59,916 bases of DNA from a virus. Lineage: Duplodnaviria; Caudoviricetes. Under the pieces are notes generated by a model that did no database searches, was not told where the DNA came from, and saw only the letters and a program-made list of their open reading frames with translations. This document shows, in pieces, positions 5,653 to 26,532 of this stretch. The translations under genes and the position numbers were made by a program. Each line of letters starts with the position of its first letter. Positions within the stretch are counted from its first letter, which is position 1. The DNA lies in the IMG/VR virus record IMGVR_UViG_3300033067_000350, positions 1-59,916 of that record; one strand, 5' to 3'.

Positions 5653-6217
5653 TTGATTTCAACTCCTCATGGGCCCTAGCCATTTCAGCTGCTGGGATGA
5701 ACAACTTATCCCACCCACTACCTCCGGCACAAGCAAGCCACCCATCTCTACTGGTTCTGTAAATGAAGTCTTTAGTGATCCAAACAGACTCATGCCCTGT
5801 AACTCCACCCTTTACAATTGTGAAGGATTTGAGCGGCCCATGGATTTGAGATAGAAAATCGGTCAACATAACCCGAACAGCAACCTTTATTGGGTTGGCA
5901 AATTTGTTCTCAAATGTCTTACAATCCACAGTTGAGGTGCTGATGTTGCGGCTTCTCTCTGCTTCAATTACCAAACTTGGGGCTATGTATACTAATTTGT
6001 GACCCAAAGCAATCAGCCTAGTTGCTTCTGCCATGCTGCCCTTGAAAAGAGTATTTGAGATGGGCTTGCCTGTCACCCAATTTCTGTGAGTCTCAATAGT
6101 AGCCATCATGTGAGGGCTAGCCAGCACGCCGTCTGCTTCATGCCTTTTGATGGCTATAATGGCATCAATGGGGTCATCGTTGTCGTGGACGCAAATGATT
6201 TTCATTCTATCTTTCAT
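5627..6217 (-). CDS. Hypothetical protein, probably leaderless
   Basis: ATG lies 5 nt after a TATACT -10 box; no Shine-Dalgarno. Confidence 0.65.
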   Translation of the reverse strand: MKDRMKIICVHDNDDPIDAIIAIKRHEADGVLASPHMMATIETHRNWVTGKPISNTLFKGSMAEATRLIALGHKLVYIAPSLVIEAERSRNISTSTVDCKTFENKFANPIKVAVRVMLTDFLSQIHGPLKSFTIVKGGVTGHESVWITKDFIYRTSRDGWLACAGGSGWDKLFIPAAEMARAHEELKSNVYQSQID

Positions 6218-9494: not shown

Positions 9495-10448
9495 TCACCT
9501 TATAACTATGTCGCCATAGTCCCTATAAATCTTCAACCTGGGTTTGTCGTGATGGCTCCAACCATGCAACTCCCCCATATATTCATTCGGGAACACATCC
9601 TTGCGAGCACCCAGTATCATGGCTCTAACAGTGTCATTCTTCTCCATAGCAACTTCCAACATCAAGTCAATATCGCACCCAAGATAGTAGTCACCTCTGT
9701 GTAGACTGTAGAAGCCACAACAACAAGTCTCCAGCAAGGCTAAATCCCTGTCGACAGGGACGTCATGATGTAGGCACTGTTCCATCAAATCTAATGAGGC
9801 CTCATCCAGAGTCTTGATTGCTGCCTCACTGTTGTCATCTTTGTCAGGCATCCCGCTGAATAGCAGGTTGAGTGCCTTGCGAGGGTTGCTGGAATTGGCA
9901 TGACCCATGTCTGGTGCCGTCAGGTTCAGTCCGCACACCTTCCCCAGCAATTCGCATCCCTTGTAGGCTGCCCACCTGCCATTGTTCCAAACCTCTTGAA
10001 TAGTATGGCCGGCGCATTGCCAATTGAATTGACTGGTGCTGATTACTGCCCCGCCTCTTTCAAGAGTGCCAGGCTTTTGGAATCTCTGCTCAGCCCACCT
10101 AACCCATCCACCTGCTTTACGCACTTGCTCACACTGGCTGTCCCAATGTTTGCGAATGTTCGACCCTCCCCTCAAACCTCTGCGTTCCAATTTAATTGGG
10201 TACAAGGCTTGCTCAGCAGAGATGTCAGAACACTTGCAGTTGTTGTCCAGATAGGCTTGTAGTGCTGACCTCAGATTGTACCAGCACATATACCAGAAGC
10301 AAAACTCAATGCGCTGCTCTGTATCCATTTGGAATGAGTTACAGATATTGCGTAGCACTGGGTACATTGGATCAGCATCGTTGATCTCAATGTATACCTT
10401 GCTGAAAGCCATGAAATCGGACCAGAGTTGGTGTGGCTGTTTGTTCAT
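9495..10448 (-). CDS. Amino acid:DNA transferase (aGPT-Pplase2 / AADT family)
   Basis: DADPMY, ERRGLR, HhH-like GRWAAYK..ELL, ETCCC, YYLG.DID. Adjacent to a P-loop kinase. Confidence 0.8.
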   Translation of the reverse strand: MNKQPHQLWSDFMAFSKVYIEINDADPMYPVLRNICNSFQMDTEQRIEFCFWYMCWYNLRSALQAYLDNNCKCSDISAEQALYPIKLERRGLRGGSNIRKHWDSQCEQVRKAGGWVRWAEQRFQKPGTLERGGAVISTSQFNWQCAGHTIQEVWNNGRWAAYKGCELLGKVCGLNLTAPDMGHANSSNPRKALNLLFSGMPDKDDNSEAAIKTLDEASLDLMEQCLHHDVPVDRDLALLETCCCGFYSLHRGDYYLGCDIDLMLEVAMEKNDTVRAMILGARKDVFPNEYMGELHGWSHHDKPRLKIYRDYGDIVIR

Positions 10449-11008
10449 AGTCCGGCATTCTCTTTTGCTTGATTAACCACAGCATTTACGATTGTGTCTC
10501 TATCAAAATTGGCCACGTTCCTGCCTGCGTCAATCAATCTCTTCTTCAGCCTTAGAATGGCCTCATGGCGTGGAATGAGAGTTTGATTGGGGTCAAAAGG
10601 CTTGCTGTTGTTCTTGGCTTTGCGTCTCTCCAGCACACTAGCAATGCAATCCGCAACTGGAGTCTCAAGGAACCAGAACCAGTAGTCATCATCCAACTCT
10701 CTGGCCAGGGCCTCCCATCTAGCGTAGACAGAAGCGACAATGGACCCTTCTACAATCACAGTTTTGTATTTTGGGTACAATGCTCTAATGGCTTCAGTGA
10801 TAGCATCTTGTTTGGTGATACCATCAGCACCTCCGCATTGAGTATCATAGTGCCCGATGATTGCTGTTTGTAAATCTGGCACTACGGTGAATGGCACGTC
10901 TTCAATTGTGGATTGAAGAGTCCATTGCTCATTGCCATACAACTTCAACATTTGATGGATGGGGTATGACTTGCCCGACCCATTTGTACCGCGAATATCA
11001 AGGATCAC
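10445..11008 (-). CDS. P-loop kinase (5-hmdU DNA kinase P-loop subunit-like)
   Basis: IRGTNGSGKS, IGHY..CGGADGI, VEG, C...V..RR. Confidence 0.8.
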   Translation of the reverse strand: MILDIRGTNGSGKSYPIHQMLKLYGNEQWTLQSTIEDVPFTVVPDLQTAIIGHYDTQCGGADGITKQDAITEAIRALYPKYKTVIVEGSIVASVYARWEALARELDDDYWFWFLETPVADCIASVLERRKAKNNSKPFDPNQTLIPRHEAILRLKKRLIDAGRNVANFDRDTIVNAVVNQAKENAGL

Positions 11009-11232
11009 TTGTCACCCCACGATCTGTGTAAAGTCATTGAAATTAGAGACGCAAACAACCATTGGTCCCCATTCTTCATATGTTTGGCCACTATCAGTAT
11101 TGCTAGTGTGAGAACCACAATAACAAACATTTTGAATAGCCAACTGAGTAACTCATGTAACCACCGACGGTATGCCATTGTTGTACCTCTTATCACAACT
11201 TGGATCGTGAGTCTGTCCTGTTTTATGCCCAC
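11005..11232 (-). CDS. Small membrane protein
   Basis: Hydrophobic helices; true start may be internal. Confidence 0.5.
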   Translation of the reverse strand: MGIKQDRLTIQVVIRGTTMAYRRWLHELLSWLFKMFVIVVLTLAILIVAKHMKNGDQWLFASLISMTLHRSWGDK

Positions 11233-11371
11233 AAAATGAGCAGTATTTCACATGCCTATTGTCCCAGCACTCTTTATGGGCAAATTGTCCACCACGTTTC
11301 ATACTGCCATCCCCATTCCCTACTATTGTAGTTGAGGGCGCAATTACTTTACCACAAATGGAGCAAATCAT
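11153..11371 (-). CDS. Small Cys/His Zn-finger protein
   Basis: CSIC..HKEC..CSFC..H..C; GAGGT RBS. Confidence 0.6.
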   Translation of the reverse strand: MICSICGKVIAPSTTIVGNGDGSMKRGGQFAHKECWDNRHVKYCSFCGHKTGQTHDPSCDKRYNNGIPSVVT

Positions 11372-11375
11372 TACC

Positions 11376-12440
11376 TCACTCCGGCATGGACTTCAAAATG
11401 TCATTCAACTCAGCCACTTGACTGTCATTCAACAGTCCTTTATGCTTGTTGATAAATGCCCGCAGTCTTTGTGATGGGGTACCCACACTAGGGATGAAGA
11501 ATCCTACAGCACGCCAGAGGATAGATTTGAGGCCATCTGGCACCAGTTGAAACTTCTTACCAGCTGCCATAGCCTGTGAGATTTCAGATTGAGTGCTGAC
11601 AGGGATGGCATCGCCGAATGACTTAGTATATGCAGATACAAGTCTGGTTTCAACAGCACTAGACTTGGGCACATGATAGTTGACATACTCAACATCCTTG
11701 GCCTTGTCATTGATCAGCTCAAGCAGTACGTCATCCCCAAATTCGGCATCATCGTGAGGGATGCTAGTCCAGATACGGCTGGTCTCATAAGCCAGATTGA
11801 ACCCATCAATCATACCCCTGTCCCGGTCCAATTTCACTCTGTCTGGACTGAAATTGTACCCATACTTGAACCCCTCAGCTTTGCAAACAAACAAACCTTG
11901 TATGTACATCATACCAGGCTTGTCTTTGATAGGCTTGTTTACAGGCAGATTGGGATCAAAATTGCCTTCAATAGCCTTTGTAGTAGCATTCTCAATGCAA
12001 AACTCCACCCCATCTTGTGATACAATACCGTTATCAAACTCTCTGTCTGAGATGTCTATGGTCAACACTTCAGAATCAAACTCTTCTGAGTACCTCAGGG
12101 CTGGTACCCATAGCTCACTCCCTGTGTAGATTTTAACAGCGTGCCCCAATCTGCACAAAACCAGCAAAGCCAGTTTGAATCCCTCGCCAAACTGACCAAT
12201 TTGGGTATCATCGCCTTGCTTAGTAGTTTGACCCAGTAGCAGCATCGATCTGCTAAGTGCTGGCCCGCCATTGTTGATTCTAAGTGCTGGAGTGACCCCA
12301 TGTACGTTGTAATCGTACACTTCCATGAAGTGACCCTTAGACTTAGCATCTAAGGCATTTTGAAGCAACTCTCTGAGGGCTTCCCAGAGTCCCCAGTGCT
12401 TTACGTAGTTAGTGGTCATTGACAATTGAATCGTCTTCAT
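11376..12440 (-). CDS. GHKL (Hsp90/MutL-type) ATPase domain protein
   Basis: ALRELLQNALDA, NNG, IGQFGEGFKLA, GVEF boxes. Confidence 0.85.
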   Translation of the reverse strand: MKTIQLSMTTNYVKHWGLWEALRELLQNALDAKSKGHFMEVYDYNVHGVTPALRINNGGPALSRSMLLLGQTTKQGDDTQIGQFGEGFKLALLVLCRLGHAVKIYTGSELWVPALRYSEEFDSEVLTIDISDREFDNGIVSQDGVEFCIENATTKAIEGNFDPNLPVNKPIKDKPGMMYIQGLFVCKAEGFKYGYNFSPDRVKLDRDRGMIDGFNLAYETSRIWTSIPHDDAEFGDDVLLELINDKAKDVEYVNYHVPKSSAVETRLVSAYTKSFGDAIPVSTQSEISQAMAAGKKFQLVPDGLKSILWRAVGFFIPSVGTPSQRLRAFINKHKGLLNDSQVAELNDILKSMPE

Positions 12441-12805
12441 GTTAATCCTCCCCAAACACTTAACGAGTCACCAACCGTTTGATGCCCAAAGAATTTGTAC
12501 ACCCGTTGTTTCAGACCCAGTCTCAGCAACATTTCACAAGCCAAAGCAAAACAACCTTCTGTGGTTTTGGGCTTTACTATGGTTTTGCCCTTTTGAGGTT
12601 GTAGTACAATATACAACATCAGTCTATCAGTACACAAGACATCGACATCTTGAACTTTGGCGATTGTGAGTCTATACCCATCCAAAGTATCAAATATGTT
12701 GACCCTGTTAGCTAGTCTACCCAATTCTGATACTGTGTAGGTCTTGGATATGGCTAGATGGGCCCTAGACTTCAACACGTTGTCTTCTTCAGGGTAGTAA
12801 CTCAT
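12437..12805 (-). CDS. Hypothetical protein
   Basis: ATGA overlaps on both sides. Confidence 0.6.
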   Translation of the reverse strand: MSYYPEEDNVLKSRAHLAISKTYTVSELGRLANRVNIFDTLDGYRLTIAKVQDVDVLCTDRLMLYIVLQPQKGKTIVKPKTTEGCFALACEMLLRLGLKQRVYKFFGHQTVGDSLSVWGGLT

Positions 12806-13734
12806 TTGATGTACTTTGATCTGGGTCTGCCCTGACCCAGTCTGGCCCTCTCATACTTGTCAAATTCACAGAGGGAATGTTCAATCTCTCTGATTTCAAA
12901 CGGCGGCCACTGATGCTCTCTGGGTGTGTCAGGATATACTGTAGCTCCATCAAAAGCAACAGGGTAGTGTCTCAACACCTCAGATTCTAGGCTACTCAGT
13001 ACCTCAGGTGCTTTGAGCCAGAGCCACTCCATAGATTCATAGGATTCTTCCAACCCTAGTCTACGCAGTCCTCTTTCAGCACCGTTGCCGGGGTTACCCC
13101 ACGTGAGCTTATCGGGTGCCTCCGTCAGCAAATTCCACCTTAAATCGCTGGTAATTTCATAGGATGTGAAATCACCGATCAGTGGAGTCAGCAACAACAC
13201 ATTAAAAGCATTCTGCAGAGTCTTGCCGTCAATGATCTGTTTAGCAATGTTGTCCTGTGAGTTCCATACTTCTTTGAGCATTCTCAAATAGGTGGACACC
13301 TTGGTCTCTTTGGGTGCACCTCTCACCATGTGTGCTGAGGTCCACATTCTGCCGCCTTCAGCATGCAGCTTCAGCATGTATTCTTCTAATTGCTCAAAGG
13401 CAGTCACAAAACCAAGTGCTGAAGCATGAGGCTCATAATTCCAAATGCGATACCACCACGTGTTAAACACTATCAATCCAGCCAATTCAGGCCAATGGCC
13501 AGTCAGATAGTTGTACACATACTGCTTCTCCATCTTTCTGAGAGCAATTGTGCCTGGATCCAACTCTCTAAATACGTTTGTGAATTTGTACGTATTCATG
13601 ATTGGGTCATCAGTCCATGGCCTAGGCACATTGCGGCTTCTCTTCAGATAGATAGAGTGACGCTCATCCATCCATTCAAAGAATCCTTGAATAGTTGAGC
13701 TTGCTGGAATGAAGTCTTCACGTAATTCTTTCAT
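12802..13734 (-). CDS. 5-hmdU DNA kinase helical subunit (aGPT-Pplase1 family)
   Basis: ERH.IY..R..PWTDDPI...YKFTNVFRELD, G.F.SYE..SD, GA.RGL, EHSLCEFDKY.R. Confidence 0.88.
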   Translation of the reverse strand: MKELREDFIPASSTIQGFFEWMDERHSIYLKRSRNVPRPWTDDPIMNTYKFTNVFRELDPGTIALRKMEKQYVYNYLTGHWPELAGLIVFNTWWYRIWNYEPHASALGFVTAFEQLEEYMLKLHAEGGRMWTSAHMVRGAPKETKVSTYLRMLKEVWNSQDNIAKQIIDGKTLQNAFNVLLLTPLIGDFTSYEITSDLRWNLLTEAPDKLTWGNPGNGAERGLRRLGLEESYESMEWLWLKAPEVLSSLESEVLRHYPVAFDGATVYPDTPREHQWPPFEIREIEHSLCEFDKYERARLGQGRPRSKYIK

Positions 13735-13901: not shown

Positions 13902-14512
13902 AGGATGATACCCTTATCAAAATCTTCATATGATGCCCCAGACTTATACTCAGAGATCATCTCATCATCGATGATCACTCTACAATCTGGCAGTACCTCA
14001 GCAATCTCTTTGGGATTGAACCTTGTGAAGACTGGGCCTGGTGCTGAATCCTTAGCCTCTGTGTACATAAAATAACCAACACCATGAGTACACATGTATC
14101 TCATGGTGGTTACCAATTTCAAACAATCCATCTTGTGGTTGCCTTGTGTGTAGGCTAGTGGCCCAAGTATGAACCCGTAGTCAAACTGAGGTTCATCTCT
14201 AAACAGCGGCAGACAATCTTCTGCCACGTGGAAGTTACCACCCTGCCACTTCTGCTTACAAACCTCAATAGCCTCACTGGAACAATCGAATCCAGTATAG
14301 TCAAAGGATTTGTAACCACAAGTCTTGAGGTTGTAAATCAAATCGCCTTTGCCACATCCTGCATCCAGTATTCTGACCCGTTGCTTGGGCATATTGAGGT
14401 GGCGGATGCATATTTGATGGATGCGATCTGCCTTCTTGGCAGACCACATATCAATGACCCTGTTTGGGTCTTTTGAGACAAATCCGTTGATGCGTTTGGC
14501 AATGTGATTCAT
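13895..14512 (-). CDS. Class I SAM-dependent methyltransferase
   Basis: ILDAGCGKG, YTGFDCS, FDY motifs. No DPPY/NPPY/PCQ DNA-methylase motif. Confidence 0.88.
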   Translation of the reverse strand: MNHIAKRINGFVSKDPNRVIDMWSAKKADRIHQICIRHLNMPKQRVRILDAGCGKGDLIYNLKTCGYKSFDYTGFDCSSEAIEVCKQKWQGGNFHVAEDCLPLFRDEPQFDYGFILGPLAYTQGNHKMDCLKLVTTMRYMCTHGVGYFMYTEAKDSAPGPVFTRFNPKEIAEVLPDCRVIIDDEMISEYKSGASYEDFDKGIILW

Positions 14513-14515
14513 AAA

Positions 14516-14588
14516 TGGGCCTTATTGGATTTGAACCAATGACCTGCCGATTATGAGCCGGATGCTCTCACCGCTGAGCTAAAGGCCC
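14516..14588 (-). tRNA. tRNA with CAT anticodon (Ile2 or Met)
   Basis: GGGCCTT/AAGGCCC acceptor, CT-CAT-AA loop, GGTTCAAATCC. CCA not encoded. Confidence 0.9.
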
Positions 14589-14603
14589 ATGCTATTGTCT
14601 ATA

Positions 14604-14676
14604 CAGGATCAGCTGGACTTGAACCAGCAACCTGCGGCTTAGAAGGCCGCTGCTCTGTCCATTGAGCTATGATCCC
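14604..14676 (-). tRNA. tRNA-Arg(TCT)
   Basis: GCGGC-CT-TCT-AA-GCCGC arm; full cloverleaf. Confidence 0.93.
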
Positions 14677-14678
14677 AT

Positions 14679-14757
14679 TGGGAGGCAGATACTGCAACGT
14701 CCCAATTTGCTGAGCGATAATAGGCAGAGTTCACCTTTCGGTTTATCTGCCTCACCA
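14679..14757 (-). ncRNA. Unrecognised structured RNA
   Basis: GAGGCAGATA/TATCTGCCTC closing stem with an internal ACC-GAAA-GGT hairpin. Confidence 0.5.
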
Positions 14758-14760
14758 GGT

Positions 14761-14875
14761 TGTCTCCTGGAGTGTACTCAGTTGCCCGCGGCAGGTCTTT
14801 GAAACCATCATGCCCTGTTTATGTCTTCATTTCCTAAGACGGGCGGCAACCATCGATGCAATGCTTCTCGGACAA
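14761..14875 (-). ncRNA. Unrecognised structured RNA
   Basis: Nested TTGTC/GACAA, GTTGCC/GGCAAC, GCCC/GGGC and GTCTT/AAGAC stems. Confidence 0.45.
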
Positions 14876-15235
14876 TGGAGCCGTGGGGAATCGAACCCCA
14901 GTCTCACAATCCAACTCAAGGTGCGTCTACGGGTGTATCCTGTGATTGTTTCTCGCCAGGTGCTCAGCCACAAGCAGCTGCTGCCTAGCCAACCCAGATA
15001 TCCTCTCATCCTGTCGTCGTCCAGATTGCCCCGACAGAACCAGCCGATGTCAATCCACAGCATATCGGCGTCAGCTGTGGGTCTACTCAGGCCGCCATCC
15101 GCATGGGCTGGGCGTTCTGAGTTGGGAAACTGAAGTTGCCAGTTACGGCTGATGGCCCATTTATTGAGTGTAGCCATCATTACTCAACCCGCTGCTTGCC
15201 TCCATTTGAATGTGATCGAATACCATGTCGGCCCC
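14876..15235 (-). ncRNA. ssrA: tmRNA
   Basis: 360 nt. GGGGCCG/CGGCTCCA acceptor with the G3.U alanine wobble; T arm GGGGTTCGATTCCCC; TAACT resume signal then tag GNFSFPTQNAQPMRMAA* (15140-15087). Confidence 0.95.
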
Positions 15236-15240
15236 GAAAC

Positions 15241-15476
15241 AGGTGCACTGAATGCTTCCATCCAGCACACCCTAGCGCACAGACACCTGAGGGGTCCAGC
15301 CACCGATCTAGCAGCCTCGCCTCCACCTAAGTTTGGTGGTCGTGGGTAATGAGCCCACTACAACAGTCACACGCCAGGCTCCATTGGGCTTTCGCCCCAA
15401 ATCCCCTATTGCACCTCTGCATTTTGTCCATTGGCCGGTAAGCCAACAAGAGGATGACTACTCAGCAACAGCAGAG
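15241..15476 (-). ncRNA. Unrecognised multi-branched RNA
   Basis: AGGTGCA/TGCACCT, AGGGG/CCCCT, AGCCT/AGGCT and CTCTGC/GCAGAG stems plus several short hairpins; no minus-strand ORF in the track. Confidence 0.5.
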
Positions 15477-15498
15477 TCTAGAATGCTATTGGTTCATA

Positions 15499-15552
15499 GC
15501 CTGTGACACGGCATACAGCCGTGTTTCGGCCTAGTGGCCTCATCAGACAGGC
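15499..15552 (-). ncRNA. Hammerhead ribozyme (type I)
   Basis: GCCUGU-CUGAUGA-GGCC(ACUA)GGCC-GAAA-CACGGC(UGUAU)GCCGUG-UC-ACAGGC: complete core, three perfect stems, GUC cleavage triplet. Confidence 0.95.
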
Positions 15553-15554
15553 GA

Positions 15555-15587
15555 TCACTTCTTCTTGCCTTTACACTTTTTACCCAT
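15555..15587 (-). CDS. Lysine-rich micropeptide MGKKCKGKKK
   Basis: AAGGAG RBS 6 nt upstream; stop codon abuts the hammerhead. Confidence 0.4.
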   Translation of the reverse strand: MGKKCKGKKK

Positions 15588-15607
15588 GATGGGCTCCTTA
15601 TGTTAAA

Positions 15608-15681
15608 TCAGGGTAGCAGGATTTGAACCTGCGGCCTTCTGGACCCAAACCAGACGCTCTACCAAGCTGAGCTACACCCTG
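15608..15681 (-). tRNA. tRNA-Pro(TGG)
   Basis: CAGGGTG/TACCCTG acceptor; TCTGG-TT-TGG-GT-CCAGA arm. Confidence 0.93.
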
Positions 15682-15685
15682 TAAA

Positions 15686-15946
15686 ACCAGTCCCACGGAT
15701 GGACGCAGGACTGGTCGGTCTGCAACAACCTTAAAGTGATTAGTTCATAAATGGTCCTCCAAAGCAACCACACTAGCTACTTACTGTAGCATTAACCACT
15801 TAGTTCATTGACGTTAGTCTGTTGACTCCGCACAGACATCATTCAATCACATAGGGGCGGGTTTGTACCCACATAACCTTCATTGGTTTAGCTTTACGCC
15901 TAGTTGCCTAGGCTAACCATAGCTGCTGGGCATCTGCATTGGTTTA
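15686..15946 (-). ncRNA. Unrecognised hairpin-rich RNA region
   Basis: GCCTAG-GCAA-CTAGGC, GTGGGT-ACAA-ACCCGC, GTCTGT/ACAGAC, GCTAC/GTAGC, AAGTGGTTA/TAATCACTT and ACCAGTCC/GGACTGGT stems. Confidence 0.45.
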
Positions 15947-16372
15947 TTACTCCAAATGAGATTTGACCTTGCGCCAATACTCAACAGTTGCCTGTTTTCG
16001 ATCGCCATTGGGCCCGCCATTCCATCGGCGTGCCTTGACTTCATCAGACTCATTGTTGCTGTAATGATTGGTGTAGATGCAATACATCTGGATTGACTTC
16101 TGCCTGTCTGTGCGATCAGTGTATTGGTACCCCAACCCAGAGATTCGGTTGACATCGTCAACCATCTGCTCTGTGATTTGGAGGCATCCCACTGACTTAC
16201 CGCCGTCGCCAACAGCCCCATCATCCCCAGCACTCTCAACTTGGATGATCGCCTTGACAAGTTTGTCCTCCTGCTGGTATCCGGCAACAGCCAGAGCACC
16301 CATAGCTAGCCCAGCCAAGGCAACTGCCACACTAATCCTTCGCATCCTGTTCCCTTTCAACATTAACTCCAA
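15947..16372 (-). CDS. Lysozyme-fold transglycosylase/muramidase with signal peptide
   Basis: AIIQVES.G...GD.G.S.GCLQI and ARRWNGGP motifs; N-terminal hydrophobic segment. Confidence 0.8.
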   Translation of the reverse strand: MELMLKGNRMRRISVAVALAGLAMGALAVAGYQQEDKLVKAIIQVESAGDDGAVGDGGKSVGCLQITEQMVDDVNRISGLGYQYTDRTDRQKSIQMYCIYTNHYSNNESDEVKARRWNGGPNGDRKQATVEYWRKVKSHLE

Positions 16373-26026: not shown

Positions 26027-26532
26027 GGTTGCTCCTGTTCCAAATTGCGGTGCCAATTCTTTGCCGACCTGCCCAAACTTATTGCCCTAGCAATATTGGG
26101 CGGTCTGTAATTTAGCCCCTTGTTCTTCATTCTGGGGTCTGCCTTAGACCTCACTGATTTGGACATATTACTGGCGTGGACTTCTTCATCAACATACTCG
26201 CTGGGTATGCCGTATGTAACGTCAGTACCAGTTACTACATATCTCAAATCAGCAGTACCGTCAGCAAGAGCAATCTCATCTCTAACAGCTAGGGCATGAA
26301 TAACCTCACTCAACTCTTCAACCATCAGGTGGGTTCTGTAAAGCCGTTCATCACCATGATGCTGCGAGTTTAATCCAGGTTGTTTGCATTTTTCAGCAAT
26401 TTCTGCTAGGTGCTTACAAATGTCCAATAGAATGCTGGTGTCGTCAAGCACTCTATTGGACCTTAAATCCATATTGCATGGGAACCCATGCTTCTTATGG
26501 AATGATTCCACATCAGTATTCATCGTCCGCAT
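26023..26532 (-). CDS. MazG-like all-alpha NTP pyrophosphohydrolase
   Basis: V..FH, EELSE, ADG.ADLRYV, EVH.SNMSK, K...Y.PP. Confidence 0.85.
   Translation of the reverse strand: MRTMNTDVESFHKKHGFPCNMDLRSNRVLDDTSILLDICKHLAEIAEKCKQPGLNSQHHGDERLYRTHLMVEELSEVIHALAVRDEIALADGTADLRYVVTGTDVTYGIPSEYVDEEVHASNMSKSVRSKADPRMKNKGLNYRPPNIARAISLGRSAKNWHRNLEQEQP

Follow-up and report, generated by a model that had tools for sequence, protein, structure and literature searches.

A 1.4-kb array of RNA genes in the genome of an uncultured phage raises the question of what its long spacers are: parts of an operon that supplies RNAs for translation or sources of further RNAs in their own right. The window, that is, the whole stretch of DNA that was analyzed (59,916 nucleotides), holds a ~60-kb genome in which all genes lie on the minus strand, and the habitat of the phage is probably fresh water.

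The RNA genes of the array

ARAGORN and Rfam calls bore out a preliminary description of this locus as a 1.4-kb array of RNA genes and placed it on the minus strand, where it runs in the order tRNA-Pro(UGG), a 10-codon mini-ORF, a type I hammerhead core, tmRNA, tRNA-Arg(UCU), and tRNA(CAU) (Table 1). The wording that these are packed with few spacer nucleotides misleads, since only ~640 of 1,431 nt belong to the tRNAs, the tmRNA, and the hammerhead. By a crude greedy ORF call, minus-strand ORFs make up ~93% of the genome, and the array is by far its longest stretch without a credible gene, which argues that the spacers are more than filler. A separate tRNA-Leu (24024-23942, ARAGORN) has its neighbors at distances of 4 and 12 nt, and only 2 nt separate the 3′ end of tRNA(CAU) from the methyltransferase start codon. 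Searching the minus strand inside the array for sigma-70-like promoters and terminators gave no match; together with the tight packing, this fits cotranscription. Near chance level, and therefore set aside, were AUGAACYAA (3 copies in the array and 4 in the whole window, with 12 of 100 shuffles giving at least 4), AAACCAAUG (two copies), and a 10-nt complementarity between spacer B and the tmRNA 3′ end.

Table 1. Features of the array, with coordinates in the window
Feature	Coordinates	Strand	Basis or extent
Spacer A, 265 nt	15682..15946	-	SLT-like gene stop codon to tRNA-Pro
tRNA-Pro, anticodon UGG	15608..15681	-	ARAGORN; Rfam, 67.3 bits; no encoded CCA
Mini-ORF MGKKCKGKKK*	15555..15587	-	Translation; GGAG at 15597-15594, 6 nt upstream
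Type I hammerhead motif	15499..15552	-	Descriptor match, three-stem fold
Spacer B, 269 nt	15236..15504	-	Leader, predicted hammerhead cut to tmRNA 5′ end
One-piece tmRNA (ssrA)	14873..15235	-	RF00023, 88.8 bits; ARAGORN tag
Spacer C, 195 nt	14678..14872	-	tmRNA to tRNA-Arg
tRNA-Arg, anticodon UCU	14603..14677	-	ARAGORN; Rfam, 72 bits
tRNA, anticodon CAU	14515..14589	-	ARAGORN; Rfam, 69.7 bits

The three tRNAs of the array were confirmed by two independent programs (ARAGORN and Rfam RF00005, 67 to 72 bits). CCA accounts for 47% of the 670 Pro codons of the phage, matching tRNA-Pro(UGG), and AGA accounts for 43% of its 814 Arg codons, matching tRNA-Arg(UCU); judged by anticodon, the phage's favorite Arg and Pro codons are read by its own tRNAs. 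The tRNA with the CAU anticodon, in which a G1-C72 pair can be read from the sequence, would be either an elongator Met tRNA or an Ile2 tRNA. None of the three tRNAs, nor the tmRNA, has an encoded CCA, so that this end must be added afterwards to all four.

The tmRNA was likewise recovered at full length (RF00023 model positions 1 to 374, against a cutoff of 47 bits) and by ARAGORN, in agreement with the preliminary description. In the Rfam alignment, its acceptor stem is tRNA-Ala-like, with 5′ GGGGCCG opposite 3′ CGGCUCC giving G3-U70, and its T-arm is UGGGG-UUCGAUU-CCCCA. The tag frame given by ARAGORN terminates in ...NFSFPTQNAQPMRMAA (...PMRMAA) followed by a stop codon, and the register of the Rfam alignment points to GGC as the putative resume codon. 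Open reading frames such as 14827-15180 and 15180-15326 were rejected as spurious, since they overlap the tmRNA. About 2.3% of phage genomes (402 of 18,146) carry a tmRNA, according to PMC9004378. By blastn against 50,697 phage records, the tmRNA matched no other tmRNA, and IMG/VR gave nothing usable for one of its exact 20-mers. A 24-nt pattern of the tmRNA 3′ end occurs in at least 120 bacterial contigs of many phyla. Capture of spacer B along with a host ssrA was considered and rejected, as blastn of the array against those contigs matched tRNA-like parts only; the longest of these matches cover the last ~80 nt of the tmRNA at 76 to 78% identity in Phycisphaerae MAGs, a similarity too low to assign a host.

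A hammerhead motif and a mini-ORF upstream of the tmRNA

The ribozyme named in the preliminary description, a hammerhead, has a complete core and all three stems, but its score falls under the Rfam cutoff. It reads GCCUGU / CUGAUGA / GGCC-ACUA-GGCC / GAAA / 7-bp stem III / GUC, cut, ACAGGC. Stem I pairs 15552-15547 with 15504-15499, the CUGAUGA core occupies 15546-15540, and stems I, II, and III have 6, 4, and 7 bp, with stem I open (type I). The core further includes GAAA and an A15.1-U16.1 pair, the residue at the cleavage site is C and thus not G, and the cut is predicted between C15505 and A15504. The descriptor matched once in the window, and any match at all was found in 3 of 300 first-order Markov genomes. 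Furthermore, the minimum free energy structure of the 53-nt element (15552-15500) consists of exactly the three stems (−22.9 kcal/mol, z = −3.2), and none of 200 shuffles was as good.

Within the Rfam clan, RF00008 was the best member for this element (23.6 bits against a cutoff of 48.5, E = 0.044). The hammerhead cores of three other phage contigs (L053, L067, and L110) likewise gave no hammerhead row at the Rfam gathering level, which makes this threshold a weak test for phage type I forms. Inspection by eye beside stem I spotted no complement of loop II (ACUA), and none of the tertiary contacts between loop II and stem I that speed cleavage at low Mg2+, so that activity at cellular Mg2+ is uncertain. 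Measured from the 3′ end of tRNA-Pro, stem I starts after 55 nt, the core after 61 nt, and the predicted cut lies at 103 nt, a further 269 nt from the tmRNA 5′ end. Polycistronic RNAs near phage genes are cut by hammerheads, as described by Perreault et al. 2011 (PMC3088659) and in a review (PMC6765202), and the biological role of bacterial and phage hammerheads is called largely open in the review.

As for the micropeptide of the preliminary description, a 10-codon ORF is indeed present, with its stop codon 2 nt before hammerhead stem I, but it is compatible with chance and has no conservation support; by our estimate, 1.4 kb of sequence would hold such an ORF by chance in about one case in three.

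Spacers, hairpins, and relatives

Where the preliminary description counted at least four unrecognized RNAs, we found three spacers with no homologue in the collections searched and with unremarkable folds. They are unrecognized in that the Rfam scan matched no family to them, the rows at E values up to 10 being far below threshold and at chance level. The labels given to them (hairpin-rich RNA, multibranch RNA, and two compact RNAs) could not be upheld: the predicted folds are unstable, with the minimum free energy structure making up 0.06 to 0.8% of the ensemble, and the z-scores of −1.7 to −2.7 (spacer A, −2.7; spacer C, −1.8) lie within the genome background (mean, −0.88; standard deviation, 1.24; 128 windows). 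The tmRNA windows themselves have a z-score of ~0 in this folding-energy screen, so that the screen has little power and decides neither way. Spacers A, B, and C hold no credible ORF, spacer A having none of at least 40 amino acids, and blastn of each spacer against the 50,697 phage records gave no match.

The solid structures in the spacers are solely two strong and perfectly paired hairpins. One, of 13 bp (15716-15685, −21.3 kcal/mol, z = −5.0, none of 200 shuffles as good), closes spacer A and takes in the first two U's of a UUUUA run, of which UUA remains 3 nt before tRNA-Pro. The other, of 14 bp (15272-15241, −21.2 kcal/mol, z about −5), closes spacer B and leaves 5 nt to the tmRNA. Among the 41-nt windows of the genome, the two hairpins rank 11th and 8th, respectively. 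A similar hairpin with a U-run directly follows the capsid gene (51036-50996), others lie at 47538-47498, 29446-29406, and 17982-17942, and the hairpins before tRNA-Pro and the tmRNA are of the same kind as these other gene-end hairpins. At its 5′ end, spacer B has a small hairpin of 5 bp (15500-15485).

Among the spacers, spacer B alone is credible as a discrete RNA, because the predicted hammerhead cut and the start of the tmRNA delimit it, hairpins stand at both of its ends, and its final 140 nt are ~98% conserved in a metagenomic relative: contig record 19 of run X3 has only 3 differences across 15236-15375. Two of the three sit in the 3′ hairpin, with pairing kept in both. While this part is kept, helix P2 of the relative's tmRNA has changed by two compensatory pair swaps (pairing taken from the Rfam alignment), which hints at constraint on the end of spacer B. 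In record 18 of X3, the 91 letters expected over spacer C did not align at 80%. The proposal that tRNA-end processing and self-cleavage act as punctuation between the RNAs is mechanistically sound for one segment, where a cut at 15505/15504 and the RNase P site at 15235 would yield a 269-nt RNA, but is unsupported as a claim that every spacer is a functional RNA. We infer that one piece, this 269-nt leader, is likely a discrete and fairly stable RNA.

Sequencing runs X1 and X2 contain the array sequence with essentially no differences and may be the source sample, and run X4 contains tRNA-like pieces only. Among the sequencing runs listed, none was of RNA. Scans of IMG/VR with single proteins (the methyltransferase, the 5-hmdU kinase, and the ligase) yielded no usable homologue, a methyltransferase scan of JGI metagenome contigs yielded no usable homologue, and an exact 21-mer of spacer B returned nothing usable from metagenome contigs. 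By blastn, the whole array matched 1,569 records, among the matches listed through its tRNA parts only. Relatives by the SLT-like protein (46 loci, 39 to 55% identity) belong to other phage lineages, lack a CTGATGA...GAAAC motif, and were rejected as too distant, as were those by the capsid protein (23 loci, 40 to 66% identity).

Operon, insert, or source of small RNAs

We think it fairly probable that the array is an accessory translation-RNA operon whose spacers are mainly leader, 3′ UTR, and filler of a mosaic insert rather than four functional RNAs in their own right. The block would be transcribed together with the neighboring genes, and host RNase P and 3′-end enzymes would excise tRNA-Pro(UGG), the tmRNA, tRNA-Arg(UCU), and tRNA(CAU). 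The hammerhead may cut its own precursor, uncoupling the part with tRNA-Pro and the mini-ORF from the part with the tmRNA, and the downstream piece would thereby gain a 5′-OH end beside the small hairpin. The two strong hairpins may serve as leaky terminators and, after the RNase P cut, as protectors of the 3′ ends of the upstream fragments. One point against this reading is that transcription might end at the hairpin and U-run directly ahead of tRNA-Pro and of the tmRNA, and no promoter was found from which it could resume.

That the array is part of a mosaic insert is suggested by the capsid relatives and by a repeat. In the capsid relative G001, the gap between the 5-hmdU kinase and the ligase is smaller (~930 bp, against 2,768 bp here), contains no tRNA, and lacks the whole block plus the methyltransferase and SLT-like genes. 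A tmRNA was found in none of the five capsid-relative records searched. In addition, a direct repeat of 15 nt (14508-14522 and 15744-15758, 14 of 15 identical) bounds a 1.24-kb block.

The T4 tRNA region is a phage tRNA cluster with two small stable RNAs of unknown function. Like clusters of the T4 type, the block described here is a gene-free stretch of tRNA-like genes on the coding strand with codon-matched tRNAs, and tRNA-processing enzymes of the host presumably release its RNAs from a longer transcript; unlike them, it includes the motif of a self-cleaving ribozyme as well as three long spacers and sits in a genome of only ~60 kb. The hammerhead resembles the intergenic ones of phages and prophages described in PMC3088659 and PMC6765202 in its canonical core, its intergenic place on the coding strand, and the predicted cutting of a polycistronic RNA. 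Whereas those lie between protein genes, this one is embedded in an operon of RNA genes, ahead of a tmRNA, and among the titles and abstracts listed by full-text searches, none describes a hammerhead in a phage tRNA or tmRNA operon.

Two further comparisons concern ribozymes and noncoding RNAs next to tRNAs. In gut phages, theta (HDV-like) ribozymes abut the 3′ end of a tRNA and have been proposed to trim its trailer (Kienbeck et al. 2024, PMC10879173). These are likewise small self-cleaving ribozymes in a phage tRNA context with a proposed role in RNA maturation, but the hammerhead is of another class, its predicted cut falls 103 nt past tRNA-Pro without abutting it, and the cyclic phosphate would be left on the trailer. 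A more plausible role than theta-like trimming is that the hammerhead cut sets the 5′ end of the downstream RNA. Both bacteria and phages have genes for Y-RNA-like YrlA RNAs (Chen et al. 2014, PMC4201824). The unrelated phage contig L067 carries tRNA-Asp, a hammerhead, YrlA (69.7 bits against a cutoff of 69), and then tRNAs in the same order, so that arrays of such a kind exist elsewhere. Like the YrlA of L067, spacer B would be a non-tRNA RNA that immediately follows a type I hammerhead and has tRNA genes on both sides; unlike it, spacer B has no YrlA (RF02553) row among 17 matches at E values up to 10 and no T-arm-like motif. The stretch GGCGAAAG of spacer B fits the short motif GNCGAAN(0-1)G (PMC4201824), a fit that is expected by chance.

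The reading of the preliminary description, in which tRNA processing and the hammerhead release at least four functional small RNAs from the spacers for decoy or antidefense purposes, seems to us quite improbable. The genome is tightly packed and yet has spacers with no credible ORF, both ends of spacer B would be defined and marked by a hairpin, part of this spacer is ~98% kept in the X3 relative, and in L067 a real noncoding RNA comes right after a hammerhead in a phage tRNA array. Against this stand the unstable folds with z-scores inside the genome background, the failure of X3 sequence past the tmRNA to align with spacer C, and the outcome of the collections searched, in which no spacer homologues, and hence no covariation, were found. 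Moreover, nothing points to a decoy or antidefense role: there is no link to a defense system, and no RNA-binding or RNA-repair gene was seen among the 40 ORFs scanned in the genome.

We regard it as unlikely, too, that the spacers are junk from cassette insertion and recombination and that the hammerhead came in as a passenger on a mobile intergenic module and does nothing for the operon. The block's absence from G001 along with the two adjacent genes, the flanking direct repeat, and the divergence of X3 directly past the tmRNA all agree with such an origin. So does the spread of hammerhead cores with the same stem II, present in at least 120 stretches of unrelated viral contigs (one stem II sequence being sampled), with no tRNA in the locus for 118 of the 129 cores listed. 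However, the core and all three stems are intact here, strong hairpins stand exactly before tRNA-like 5′ ends, and phage genomes seldom retain 700 nt of useless sequence. A third reading joins the Lys-rich mini-ORF, the hammerhead, and the tmRNA into one device, in which terminating ribosomes would cover stem I and so control self-cleavage and the supply of tmRNA. The well-spaced GGAG and the position of the stop codon are in its favor, but by our estimate chance would place a 10-codon ORF with a Shine-Dalgarno sequence in about one of three such regions, this one has no conservation, and we know of no precedent for a device of this kind; we hold it to be very improbable.

A tentative and rather doubtful further reading is that the 269-nt RNA (15504-15236), released by the hammerhead and RNase P and protected at its ends, is a functional phage small RNA that travels with the tmRNA gene and belongs to a wider, undescribed hammerhead-led class, of which L067 and L053 would be other instances. 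Taken together, the hammerhead of this array, the one before a Y-RNA-like gene in L067, and the one in a tRNA array in L053, where the predicted cut falls exactly at nucleotide +1 of tRNA-Tyr, suggest a job for hammerheads in tRNA and tmRNA operons, namely, to give stable RNAs their 5′ ends with neither a promoter nor RNase P. Should the 269-nt leader accumulate, the phage would have a new small RNA with a tie to ribosome rescue; otherwise, the locus would be a usual phage cluster of tRNA and tmRNA genes that carries a ribozyme as a passenger.

Gene content and the minus-strand RNA block

The window is an entire IMG/VR virus record, linear and 59,916 bases long, and has a CheckV completeness estimate of 91%. 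All long ORFs of the window are on the minus strand, and the RNA array was therefore read on that strand, from 15946 down to 14516. The gene products include terminase, portal, major capsid protein, family A DNA polymerase, primase-helicase and ATP-dependent ligase. A thymidine-hypermodification gene set is also present (9495-13734 and 24029-26532), and from its composition we predict that the phage DNA probably contains modified thymidines.

RNA genes were called by ARAGORN and Rfam, which concur on four genes in the array; the tRNA-Pro, tmRNA, tRNA-Arg and tRNA-CAT of the preliminary description were all recovered by both, on the minus strand. On reading the sequence, we found an encoded CCA in none of the four. 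The tmRNA has an acceptor stem with G3-U70 and a tag frame ending in PMRMAA*. The array tRNAs match the codon use of the phage; AGA accounts for 43% of 814 Arg codons and CCA for 47% of 670 Pro codons (47 ORFs counted). The acceptor stem of the tRNA(CAU) (14515-14589) has C4-G69 and C5-G68, which we take to be lysidine synthase recognition elements, and because of these pairs the gene may encode tRNA-Ile2 and not tRNA-Met. ATA makes up 17% of the phage's Ile codons.

Features of the window (all on the minus strand)
Feature	Position	Detail
Spacer A	15946-15682	265 nt
Hairpin	15716-15685	long, perfect; -21.3 kcal/mol, z ~-5; 3 nt ahead of tRNA-Pro
tRNA-Pro(UGG)	15681-15608	ARAGORN and Rfam
tRNA-Pro-to-hammerhead gap		55 nt
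Mini-ORF MGKKCKGKKK*	15587-15555	GGAG 6 nt upstream
Hammerhead stem I	15552-15547 with 15504-15499	GCCUGU pairs with ACAGGC; sequence read
Spacer B	15504-15236	269 nt, hammerhead cut to tmRNA 5' end
Small hairpin	15500-15485	begins 5 nt past hammerhead cut
Hairpin	15272-15241	long, perfect; -21.2 kcal/mol, z ~-5; 5 nt ahead of tmRNA
One-piece tmRNA	15235-14873	Rfam 88.8 bits (cut-off 47, full model); ARAGORN
Spacer C	14872-14678	195 nt
tRNA-Arg(UCU)	14677-14603	ARAGORN and Rfam
Gap between last two tRNAs		13 nt
tRNA(CAU)	14589-14515	ARAGORN and Rfam
tRNA-Leu(UAA)	24024-23942	ARAGORN; fifth RNA gene, outside array
5-hmdU DNA kinase	12802-13734	PF18723, E 6e-44
Second kinase-like gene	10445-11008	hypermodification set
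Amino acid:DNA transferase	9495-10448	hypermodification set
Thymidylate-synthase-like gene	24977-26056	hypermodification set
dCMP deaminase	24029-24472	hypermodification set
MazG-like gene	26023-26532	hypermodification set
Hairpins with U-runs	51036-50996, 50810-50770, 47538-47498, 29446-29406, 17982-17942	long, perfect, 13-15 bp; mostly gene ends

The hammerhead and its counterparts in other phages

Judged by its sequence, the hammerhead is a textbook type I element, with a CUGAUGA core, stem II (GGCC-ACUA-GGCC), GAAA, a 7-bp stem III and GUC preceding the predicted cut between 15505 and 15504. The predicted fold of the 53-nt element consists of exactly these three stems (-22.9 kcal/mol, z = -3.2). 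A descriptor with permissive stem limits (minimum 4, 3 and 3 bp) matched this one site in the window; among 300 first-order Markov simulations of the genome, 3 contained a match. The earlier identification of a hammerhead is thus borne out by a full type I core and three stems but not by Rfam, where the score was below the cut-off (RF00008, 23.6 bits versus 48.5, E = 0.044 in a 1.9-kb search). This low score tells little, because three other phage hammerhead cores also fell below the gathering level. By eye, no tertiary contact between loop II and stem I was seen in the hammerhead, so its activity in vivo is uncertain. The micropeptide described just upstream exists as an ORF with a GGAG, its stop codon 2 nt ahead of stem I, but we estimate that such a Shine-Dalgarno-led mini-ORF arises by chance about once per three such regions, and it has no other support.

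Hammerhead cores with the same stem II were found in at least 120 IMG/VR stretches. Among the matches listed, the descriptor distinguished 130 cores (69 type I, 57 type III and 4 unclassified); a slightly stricter expression gave 129 among the matches listed, of which 118 were tRNA-free across the fetched locus, whereas 3 were situated within 500 nt of a tRNA. Two of these three are type I hammerheads in an informative tRNA context. On a 126.8-kb contig (L053; locus positions 5777-5902, minus strand), the hammerhead is fused to tRNA-Tyr, with the predicted cut exactly before tRNA nucleotide +1 and stem I using the tRNA 5' acceptor strand; self-cleavage here could generate the tRNA 5' end with no need for RNase P. 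The other locus, on a 62.7-kb contig (L067; 5760-6389), has the order tRNA-Ser, tRNA-Asp, hammerhead, YrlA, tRNA-Thr, tRNA-Gly, and the cut lies 11 nt ahead of the start of the match to the Y-RNA-like YrlA (RF02553, 69.7 bits, cut-off 69). A tblastx comparison of both loci with the window revealed no relatedness. Published reports describe polycistronic RNAs near phage genes that are cut by hammerheads (PMC3088659, PMC6765202), tmRNA in ~2.3% of phage genomes (PMC9004378), phage tRNAs adjoined by HDV-like theta ribozymes (PMC10879173) and Y-RNA-like genes carried by phages (PMC4201824). None of the titles and abstracts listed by full-text literature searches places a hammerhead within an operon of phage tRNA and tmRNA genes.

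Spacers, hairpins and a close relative

Some 790 of the 1431 nt of the array are unassigned. The spacers hold no credible ORF, and an Rfam search of the array (E up to 10, 17 rows in all) returned no credible family for them, the few overlapping rows being far sub-threshold and at chance level. Whole-spacer folds had z values of -2.7 (A), -1.7 to -1.8 (B) and -1.8 (C), with MFE structures making up less than 1% of the ensemble. No array window fell under the 3rd percentile of the genome background for 150-nt windows (mean z -0.88, sd 1.24, n = 128); since the tmRNA windows themselves have z ~0 in this test, it argues neither for nor against structure in the spacers. The spacers can still be called unrecognized by Rfam, but neither the proposal of four or more functional RNAs among them nor a decoy or anti-defence role found support in any test run.

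Two long hairpins are predicted to be robust structural features of the spacers, ranking 11th (15716-15685) and 8th (15272-15241) among all minus-strand 41-nt windows. They are in the same class as the hairpin-plus-U-run elements at gene ends, one of which directly follows the capsid gene; these elements are probably phage terminators or RNA 3'-end stabilizers.

A close relative is represented in X3, a sequencing run labelled freshwater metagenome, by two short, low-depth contigs (3-5x), with one contig behind each observation. Record 19 spans 15151-15375 and has 16 differences from the window, 13 of them concentrated within the tmRNA, around the D-loop and on the 5' strand of helix P2. Three lie in its 140 nt of spacer B (~98% identical), and two of these are in the 3' hairpin, with pairing kept (G-U to A-U; G-C to G-U). 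Record 18 spans the tmRNA 3' end and has changes at 14907 and 14908, which form compensatory P2 swaps with 15212 and 15211, respectively (pairing from the Rfam alignment); 91 letters expected over spacer C failed to align. These contigs weakly suggest that the tmRNA is under selection, that the 3' part of spacer B is linked to it and that spacer C is not conserved. The main differences of the relative fall in tmRNA helix P2 (window 14907-14910 and 15193-15227).

Insertion of the RNA block and its proposed processing

No homologue fit for a covariation test of the array was found by our searches. Protein scans of IMG/VR anchored on the methyltransferase, kinase and ligase of the flanks yielded no relatives, nor did JGI metagenome contigs when scanned with the methyltransferase; an exact tmRNA 20-mer (IMG/VR), a spacer B 21-mer (metagenome contigs) and blastn of each spacer and the tmRNA against 50,697 phage records gave no match. 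Because tmRNA was found in none of five capsid-relative records searched (~60% identity; one complete), and because the kinase-ligase gap in the capsid relative G001 is tRNA-free and ~930 bp long versus 2768 bp in the window, we conclude from sequence comparison that the RNA block, together with the SLT-like and methyltransferase genes, is an insert specific to this lineage. Some 1.24 kb of it is bracketed by a direct repeat of 15 nt (14/15 identical; estimated chance expectation, ~0.06). One copy (14508-14522) spans the tRNA(CAU) 3' end and the methyltransferase start codon; the other (15744-15758) lies in spacer A, where it is preceded by GGAGGA and has the sequence AUG AAC UAA. The repeat looks like a gene-start junction duplicated on insertion of the 1.24-kb RNA block.

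The SLT-like gene (15947-16372) adjoins a one-piece tmRNA array in the window, whereas a permuted (two-piece) tmRNA gene was observed in 18 of 46 viral loci (L004-L049, fetched with 4 kb of flank on each side) encoding relatives of its SLT-domain product (39-55% identical). This proximity may reflect either a gene order shared among Melnitz-like marine phages or a linkage that recurs (PMC9004378).

We infer that the RNA block is co-transcribed with neighbouring genes and that RNase P would cleave the four tRNA-like 5' ends, where the hairpins just upstream would serve either as shields for the 3' termini newly formed on upstream fragments or as leaky terminators. Self-cleavage by the hammerhead would occur 269 nt upstream of the tmRNA. 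Because tRNA-Pro would then carry a 103-nt trailer ending in a 2',3'-cyclic phosphate, the cut is unlikely to aid tRNA-Pro 3' maturation. More plausibly, the cut would set the 5'-OH end of the downstream RNA, with spacer B freed as a putative 269-nt RNA bearing a hairpin at both ends. The array is a real, somewhat unusual phage RNA operon, a variant on known kinds.
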